IMG/VR virus record: IMGVR_UViG_3300020202_000088
Location: 1-54,754 of that record
Reading direction: 5' to 3' (one strand)
DNA from: a virus
Lineage: Duplodnaviria; Caudoviricetes
DNA: 54,754 nt
In this document: piece after piece, positions 33,468 to 33,609 of the stretch
How the letters are laid out: every line of letters starts with the position of its first letter
Position numbering within the stretch: the first letter of the stretch is position 1
Position numbers and translations under genes: made by a program
The notes under the pieces: model-generated
Databases searched by the model: none
Seen by the model: only the letters and a program-made list of their open reading frames with translations
Told to the model about the DNA's origin: nothing

Positions 33468-33505
33468 ACCCAAAAATTTCTGGGCTGGGTCCCATACTAC
33501 CACTT
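33468..33505. other. Candidate packaging signal (satellite copy of the helper motif)
   Basis: 34/38 identity with 16605-16642, same internal spacing; both are followed by C-runs. Confidence 0.6.
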
Positions 33506-33609
33506 CTATTGGACCTGCTTTTTGCCTACCCCCCGGGGTGGCAGAGGTGGGCCGGGGGCTGCAGTAATCAACTGCTTGATGTTTCATCGTAGGGTTGAGT
33601 CAATGGGGG

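Follow-up and report, generated by a model that had tools for sequence, protein, structure and literature searches.

The 54,754-nucleotide DNA analysed here (the window; positions 1 to 54,754 of IMG/VR virus record IMGVR_UViG_3300020202_000088, Duplodnaviria; Caudoviricetes) consists of a phage genome of about 43.7 kb, called the helper, and an insert of 10.9 kb. A 38-nt non-coding sequence (38-mer) is present once in each of these two parts, and the question raised by this locus is why the insert carries this sequence of the phage. A preliminary description of the window regarded it as a terminase recognition or cut site of the helper that is mimicked by a satellite. The results described below point tentatively in this direction: the element that contains the 38-mer may be the packaging recognition site of the phage, and the insert may mimic this site.

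The helper 38-mer is located at 16605-16642 and the insert 38-mer at 33468-33505, both on the minus strand, and 34 of the 38 positions are identical, as found by direct reading and by a repeat search. When read in the late-gene sense, each copy presents first a 21-nt box and then, after a 5-nt spacer, a 12-nt box. All four mismatches are located in the central 5 nt, so that both boxes are exact and equally spaced. The 21-mer occurs twice in the window when up to three mismatches are allowed, and none of 100 dinucleotide shuffles contains a match. When the genome is searched against itself by BLASTN, three repeated segments are detected in all, one of which is the 38-mer (E 7.7e-07). A third partial copy of either box is not found in the window at up to 2-4 mismatches, and the exact 21-mer is found neither in the viral contig collection nor in the genome contig collection. 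Both copies are followed by a C-run at a nearly equal distance (from 16665 and from 33529 respectively). The helper 38-mer lies inside a gap of about 700 nt (16360 to about 17044), from which the leftward late genes and the rightward early genes diverge. The short open reading frames (ORFs) across either copy have a GC content at the third codon position (GC3) of 0.48-0.59, as compared with 0.83-0.88 for the identified phage genes and 0.70-0.74 for insert genes, indicating that both copies are non-coding. The repeat with its equal spacing, its non-coding nature, the C-runs and the position of the helper copy where late and early transcription diverge had all been claimed in the preliminary description, and all of them hold upon rereading, the first also in the light of the shuffles and the self-comparison.

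Two other functions of the 38-mer were considered and rejected. One reading frame keeps a short peptide in both copies, but the helper frame opens one codon ahead of the sequence without a start codon, and its GC3 is like that of non-coding DNA. A stable RNA is not indicated either, because the fold z-scores (0.05, −0.55, −0.38 and −0.91) are no better than those of shuffles and the two copies fold differently. Rfam gives no match at gathering score, and no tRNA or tmRNA gene is found in the window.

The distribution of the mismatches bears on the possibility that the 38-mer is a functionless relic, left behind when the insert once recombined with a related phage. Exchange between the insert and the phage has occurred, because they share two other segments, a gene for a 111-aa protein (95% identity) and a tail-fibre gene (78% identity). 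However, the flanks of the two 38-mer copies show an in-register identity of only 14-34% across seven flank windows, and exact boxes around a spacer that is changed at four of five positions, with flanks at the random level, do not resemble the neutral decay of one copied block. This combination suggests position-specific selection on two boxes; neutral decay, or a single copying event in the recent past, would account for it less well. Conservation of the site in the phage family, as described below, likewise speaks against a relic, which is a very unlikely explanation. The preliminary description had called the flanks otherwise unrelated. This is correct at the level of identity, but it does not hold more widely, because a profile places both copies in the same wider type of element.

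This wider element was not part of the preliminary description. By alignment and profile search, the 38-mer belongs to a non-coding element of about 90 nt, which is located upstream of the large terminase gene in relatives of the phage. A fuzzy search that covered 81 fetched loci gave one match, L021 (large terminase 56% identical), in which 24 of the 33 specified positions agree, 359 nt upstream of the terminase gene and in the same relative orientation. Local alignment ranked L021 and L003 at the top and also indicated the very start of L010, and a BLAST search from L010 led to G004 (E 0.022). A profile was then built from the helper copy, the insert copy, L003, L021, L010 and G004, and these six match it by construction. 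It newly matched L015 (E 3.6e-06), L014 (0.011) and L007 (0.014), and weakly L025 (0.91) and L023 (1.6), and in the window it detects (by nhmmer) the two known copies and no others. The matches in the helper, L003, L021, L012, L010, L015, L014 and L007, and the weak ones in L025 and L023, all have the orientation of the large terminase gene and precede it by 0.36-4.3 kb. In the helper, where the element opens the late operon, 2.5 kb separate it from this gene (12578-14044, minus strand; phrog_2, E 4.8e-40; Pfam Terminase_3, 79.3 bits, and Terminase_6N, 40.7 bits). Eight of the 23 in-family loci do not extend into the upstream region, and the element was placed by eye in L017, L019 and L008. 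A large-terminase scan of metagenome contigs gave only L005, which is the same contig as L003.

In the late-gene sense, the element is arranged as a G-run, an A-rich stretch, a core of about 25 nt, a T-block CAnAAATTTTT, about 5 nt and TTTTT. The core contains a different short palindrome in each phage, and the G-run and T-block are common to phages whose large terminases are 50-73% identical. The 38-mer corresponds to the core (21-nt box), the 5-nt spacer and the first T-block (12-nt box). The whole helper element, with G-run, A-rich stretch, core and T-block, extends over 16585-16670 on the minus strand (37957-38042 on the reverse complement, by nhmmer), and the whole insert element, detected by the same profile, over 33448-33533 on the minus strand, with the second T-run missing. 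The G-run of the insert element is at the same distance as that of the helper, and its G-run flank is closer to that of L021 than to that of the helper. The insert copy agrees with the helper at all 33 box positions, with four of the five spacer bases changed. The insert carries its own diverged version of the family element, and precisely where this element differs between phages, the insert and the helper are the same. Such identity in the variable core suggests that the site is read on both DNAs by a factor specific to the phage, and not to the family or the host. The idea that a satellite mimics the site gains from this result, because exact identity in the phage-variable part is the expected signature of mimicry of a cis-acting site. 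It is not settled by it, because a regulator site or a replication origin would give the same pattern.

The insert is considered foreign to the phage, because it is absent from the closest relative found, differs in codon composition and has an integrase and an attachment (att) core of its own. The closest relative, L003 (large terminase 73% identical), is syntenic with the window and contains nothing that matches the insert; the homologues of 23925-24374 and 36012-36524 are almost adjacent in it. The GC3 of the insert genes is 0.53-0.74, as compared with the 0.83-0.88 of the phage genes. The insert body (25112-35679) is bounded by a direct repeat of 344 nt that contains the whole gene for the 111-aa protein, with the left copy at 24768-25111 and the right copy at 35680-36023, both on the plus strand, 95% identical and spaced by 10,912 bp. 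The two copies of this bounding gene are phage-like in GC3 (0.83 and 0.80). A tyrosine integrase (26584-27792, minus strand; phrog_1, E 1.4e-55; Phage_integrase, 70.1 bits) and an excisionase-like HTH_17 protein (27796-28212, minus strand) are encoded by the insert. None of the insert ORFs, several of which are without any family, matches a terminase, portal, capsid or lysis family in PHROGs, Pfam, NCBIfam or PADLOC; NCBIfam and PADLOC give no family for the ten proteins tested in each. The gene set also matches no family model of phage-inducible chromosomal islands (PICIs) in the libraries searched. An integrase with an att site, a length of 10,912 bp, which is within the range of 7-20 kb, and the lack of capsid, terminase and lysis matches are features expected of a satellite. 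A satellite-like integrative element is therefore a fair name for the insert, and the term satellite, as used in the preliminary description, is reasonable but unproven. The part of this earlier claim that stands is that the insert is a separate mobile element; helper and satellite are located on one assembled circle and not on two records.

The att core bears on whether the two 38-mers are a pair of recombination sites (att or res), used by integrases or a serine resolvase to excise or resolve the intervening 16.9-kb segment. In favour of this, the circle contains them as direct repeats, a small palindrome is present inside the site, and the gene for a serine resolvase/invertase (34097-34753, plus strand; likely true start near 34175, by eye) is located about 670 nt from the insert copy. 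However, Logan contigs of two sequencing runs (X1 and X2, from two studies), which were aligned to the window and which are assembled contigs and hence carry no read starts, place the att core of the insert integrase elsewhere. It is a piece of 46 nt (26521-26566) located just past the integrase gene; it holds a tRNA 3' end and is flanked on both sides by foreign sequence in X1 and X2, and its depth is 49.9, as compared with about 20-24 alongside. The 38-mer is not the att core, because this 46-nt piece is. In addition, the centre of the site differs at four of five bases, where recombinases need identity, the element is located upstream of the terminase gene in relatives without an adjacent recombinase (L021 and L010, for example), and the joint expected between the two copies is seen in the contigs of neither run. 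A recombination pair is therefore extremely improbable. A 34-nt part of the att core is found exactly in 32 genome contigs, 29 of which are named as members of the Bdellovibrionota lineage (Bdellovibrio, Bacteriovoracaceae, Oligoflexia and the like). These matches possibly indicate the host, but only as a lead to the phylum, Bdellovibrionota.

The explanation that we favour, at somewhat less than even odds, is that the element is a packaging recognition site mimicked by the insert. It is suggested by the position and orientation of the element, its modular conservation, the mimicry, the lack of terminase, capsid and portal matches in the insert, the contig breaks described below and the precedent of PICIs. 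According to this model, the element would be the place at which the packaging machinery of the phage recognises, and perhaps cuts, its own DNA. The G-run and T-block, which are conserved, would act in DNA bending or as partners of the large terminase, which is conserved too, and recognition of the variable palindromic core would fall to a small DNA-binding subunit that evolves fast. A candidate for the reader of the core is the 91-aa basic protein encoded by the first gene of the late operon (16084-16359, minus strand), which has no family match and which may be a site-binding, small-terminase-like protein. Small basic ORFs, which match no library family, precede the large terminase gene in relatives as well, as read by eye. 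The insert, which would replicate and integrate by itself, would present the core of the helper and thereby be accepted by the helper machinery. Its DNA would then be packaged into particles built by the helper, possibly with the tail-fibre variant of the insert. We infer this packaging by the helper machinery because the insert has the element with the core of the helper copied exactly.

The ends of related contigs are of interest in this respect. In G002, a linear contig of 44,947 bp that is complete according to CheckV, the two ends meet within the element: the last letters are ...GGGGAT and the first are ACCAAATTTTT. This break is located just before the T-block, at a position corresponding in the alignment to the 5-nt spacer of the 38-mer. 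The end of G003 is about 2 nt short of the position aligned with base 1 of the 38-mer. The start of G001 coincides with the G-run, yet this contig is closed by a 127-nt overlap. For a genome of 44 kb and a target of 90 nt, two independent breaks are, by a rough estimate, more than expected by chance.

Several results weigh against a packaging site, and some of them concern these same contig ends. The three ends are at three different places within about 50 nt. Among the nine near-complete contigs (at least 41 kb, window included), a true break in the element is found only in G002. The element is internal in G004, G005, L025 and the window, and most relatives bridge it; in the same near-complete set, the ends of L022 and L024 are in the terminase gene, and no element is detected in L034. 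The contigs of the sequencing runs bridge both 38-mer copies in X1 and the insert copy in X2. G-runs and T-runs are hard to sequence and assemble, and the breaks could arise from that alone. Among the in-family loci with at least 4.6 kb of upstream sequence, the element is undetected in three (L020, L022 and L034). The large terminase is of the Terminase_3/PBSX type, which is often linked to headful packaging, with the site usually in the small-terminase gene, and no small terminase subunit is identified by any of the family libraries searched. Finally, a 54.6-kb composite that is packaged as such would be split if both sites, at distances of 16.9 and 37.7 kb, were active in unit-length cutting. 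A site at which a packaging series starts (pac-type) would avoid this splitting.

A site for the control of late genes would also agree with the location of the helper copy, in the control region from which early and late genes diverge, and with the co-orientation of both copies with the leftward gene sets downstream of them. The palindromic core would then be an operator for a phage-specific activator, antiterminator or repressor, and the insert copy would switch on the leftward genes of the insert (replication protein and tail-fibre variant) together with the late genes of the helper. A phage-variable palindrome beside conserved A/T-rich DNA resembles the operators of differently regulated phages, and the 21-nt box contains on the late-gene strand a TG-n-TAGTAT stretch that is, by eye, like an extended -10 element. 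Late-phase activation of satellite genes by the helper is proposed for helper-embedded PICIs (HE-PICIs; PMC10111431). However, a consensus scan detects no sigma-70-like promoter in 16300-17450 (shuffle mean 0.8), and the lone site that touches the insert copy (33450-33477, plus strand) has no counterpart in the helper; a shared sigma-70 promoter (-35 and -10 hexamers at a spacing of 16-18 nt) was thus rejected, as the scan found none common to both copies. L021 and L003 lack the -10-like hexamer, and no pair of hexamers at a fixed spacing is seen by eye across the family alignment. The insert copy is located downstream of the gene for a ribbon-helix-helix regulator (33831-34046, minus strand; RHH_1, 25.9 bits against a cut-off of 20.5) and about 690 nt separate it from the next clear gene on its downstream side.

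The promoters that are evident in the phage use a different operator. A palindromic motif, GTGTAATACAC, occurs with 0-1 mismatch at 16096, 16978, 18625, 21944, 22388, 38350, 38594, 39710, 42757 and 45965/45975. At 22388 and 39710, for example, it is located between TTGACA-like and TATACT-like hexamers, and such sigma-70-like promoters are found at ten or more places. The motif is probably the operator of a phage regulator that acts at early and middle promoters. It is absent from the insert except for one match with two mismatches at 33126-33136. With these results taken together, a late-gene control site is a possibility that we consider doubtful, though not a negligible one.

A further possibility is a replication origin or priming site, at which the G-rich strand and the A/T tract would provide an R-loop or an unwinding site for a PolA-type replisome and which the insert would copy in order to be replicated by the helper; an origin had been named as an alternative in the preliminary description too. 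It is raised by a G-rich tract that is strongly strand-asymmetric, contains several G-runs, passes into an A/T tract and is kept across relatives. The G-rich tract (C-rich on the plus strand) of the helper extends over 16643-16830, upstream of the helper element in the late-gene sense (minus strand), and consists of short repeated units; tracts of a similar kind are present in relatives. The phage encodes PolA, a primase, a helicase and exonucleases in a replication module at 38613-48506 on the plus strand. However, the exactly copied part of the site is the variable core and neither the G-run nor the A/T tract, and the insert copy is without the long G-rich array and the second T-run. The insert appears to own a replication initiator and would have less need of a helper origin, and the cumulative GC skew does not turn at 16.6 kb. 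An origin is therefore improbable.

The initiator in question is a 432-aa protein encoded at 31478-32776 on the minus strand, the first clear gene downstream of the insert copy, which has a putative primase-polymerase-like domain and a winged helix. A search of the ESM Atlas leads to primase/Rep clusters with a score of 0.90. The protein has 121 homologues, in 40 of which D89, D91, K126 and D161 are invariant, and HTH_36 is matched by 8 of these 40; no relative is found in the viral contig collection. In its structure model (pLDDT 87), the best Foldseek row is the archaeo-eukaryotic primase domain of the S-2L PrimPol, with a weak E value of 0.05. VIA-align gives a weak similarity to Prim-PolC (Z 6.2, root-mean-square deviation 4.7, 166 residues aligned) and winged-helix rows at about Z 7. 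This evidence is consistent but weak, and the protein is probably a primase-type replication protein.

Use of the packaging site of a helper by a satellite is established in principle by P4 and by PICIs of the cohesive-end (cos) type. The satellite P4 shares cos with its helper P2, has a primase-type replication protein of its own and is packaged by the helper terminase. The insert resembles P4 in that a small integrative element with a putative primase-type replication protein carries a sequence nearly identical to that of its helper. It differs in that the shared stretch is just 38 nt long, that the terminase belongs to another family (Terminase_3), and that the insert is located inside the helper contig, with a tail-fibre paralogue and without a recognisable gene for capsid size. 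The cos sites of lambdoid phages are modular, with a nicking part and a phage-specific binding part beside the terminase genes. The element described here likewise combines a part common to the family with a part that may set specificity, upstream of the terminase genes.

PICIs of the cos type, such as SaPIbov5, are without a terminase of their own and are packaged by means of a copy of the helper cos (PMC5052747). The insert is similarly without a terminase match, but the host group and phage family are unrelated. In the HE-PICI report (PMC10111431), the element 11capE in prophage 50icd has a 258-bp stretch with 90% identity to the helper at the position of lambda cos, which is taken as a cos site. 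The insert is comparable with 11capE as a satellite-like element inside a helper genome that shares a short stretch with the helper. The same report describes HE-PICIs as integrated by their integrase into a late gene of the helper and co-oriented with that gene. The insert lacks this feature, which defines HE-PICIs in that account: it is located between early-region genes, is bounded by a duplication of the whole gene for the 111-aa protein, and contains its att core internally and unrecombined. In cobaviruses and T7-like phages, short direct terminal repeats are located in an ORF-free region between two gene modules (PMC6775973). The helper shares with the cobaviruses, as presented there, a size of about 40-45 kb, PolA-type replication genes and an ORF-free stretch between modules, which in those phages contains the genome ends. 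They are not close relatives, and the overlaps of 127-128 nt in G001 and the window look like assembly overlaps, in contrast to the terminal repeats described in that source.

If the element is indeed a packaging site mimicked by the insert, its 21 + 12 nt would represent a compact code by which DNA is recognised specifically in a large phage family without a cultured member, and the family alignment would offer natural core swaps on one scaffold. Mimicry of a cis-acting site by a satellite and a helper-embedded lifestyle would also be known from a lineage of soil phages that is distant from the models in enterobacteria and staphylococci. A more specific version combines all of these proposals: the element would be the true genome end of an uncultured cos-type phage family, cut in the 5-nt spacer, with the G-run and T-block as handles for the terminase and the core code read by the first late protein, and an embedded, self-replicating satellite would enter and leave by the shared gene instead of att, copy only the code, and re-aim the particles with its own tail fibre. 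In all its parts together, this version is unlikely.

Cultured phages give little help in assigning a packaging type. A DNA search of cultured phages with the helper element gave only two rows, both at the chance level (E = 6). The large-terminase and portal matches in cultured phages are all below 60% identity, and those listed are below 30%, so that the packaging type is not transferable because the matches are too distant. The best large-terminase match by score among cultured phages is phage API480, the packaging strategy of which is reported as unknown (PMC11860570).

The window as a whole is an assembly circle of 54,626 bp and not a molecule with a true terminal repeat, because the 128-nt overlap of its ends (one mismatch) falls inside a gene. 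The IMG/VR record is 100% complete according to CheckV. The window minus the insert is 43,714 bp, and complete relatives are 43.5-45.4 kb. In X1, which may come from the sample of the window itself, the depth of the phage is 20.8 and that of the insert 17.7-24.1; in X2, both are about 5. In the 344-nt repeat, a stretch of 221 nt (24882-25102) is exact in both copies, all mismatches are outside this stretch, and the summed depth is 38. The assembly graph is a figure of eight, because these 221 nt are exact in both copies of the bounding gene. The sharp switch of identity within the duplicated gene fits a crossover by homologous recombination. The contig data fit a 54.6-kb composite and a 43.7-kb phage with a 10.9-kb circle alike, and the deposited contig is the composite. 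Four times 10,912 bp is 43,648 bp, close to the 43,714 bp of the phage without the insert; this fourfold match may be a coincidence and is set aside, as most sizes fit some multiple within the usual tolerance of packaging.

The phage has a single head, packaging and tail module on the minus strand, with the tail genes running round the contig junction. This module includes the genes for the portal (9665-11857, minus strand) and the major head protein (6781-7989, minus strand). The early genes are located at about 17.0-24.4 kb on the plus strand. The tail-fibre-like gene of the helper (50763-52061, minus strand) is the paralogue of a gene in the insert (29080-30468, minus strand), the 462-aa product of which is 85% identical to the helper protein over the first 403 aa. 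The wider family of this 462-aa protein is found on phage contigs of about 40-45 kb, and one member has a tail-fibre chaperone domain. At the left end of the insert, an ORF of 426 aa (25084-26364; window GC 0.50, GC3 0.53) has no match in PHROGs, Pfam, NCBIfam or PADLOC and looks like cargo.

Some further observations concern the surroundings of the large terminase gene. A 370-aa protein encoded directly upstream of it (14072-15184) has a weak tyrosine-recombinase match (phrog_1, E 1.3e-06) and may be the integrase of the phage itself; L003 has in the same place (8696-9772) a 358-aa ORF that is 27% identical to the insert integrase, and other relatives are without such an ORF. A 26-nt sequence is repeated with 81% identity at 12555-12580, just past the stop of the large terminase gene, and at 16500-16525, in the late leader about 80 nt downstream of the helper 38-mer. 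A purine-rich non-coding leader of 250-700 nt separates the element from the first late gene (16360-16570 in the window, 300-700 in L010, 300-600 in L019 and 200-460 in L011) and could be a structured 5' leader. A Hint (intein-type) domain is present in one large-terminase homologue, and some homologues are 761-768 aa long (P0073, P0077 and P0128). Four related contigs (L022, L023, L024 and L026) end inside the large terminase gene, perhaps due to such variable insertions. ORFs with Cys/His motifs, HNH- or endonuclease VII-like by eye, are located beside the large terminase gene in L008 (about 500-935), L009 (about 364-808) and L016 (about 100-300).

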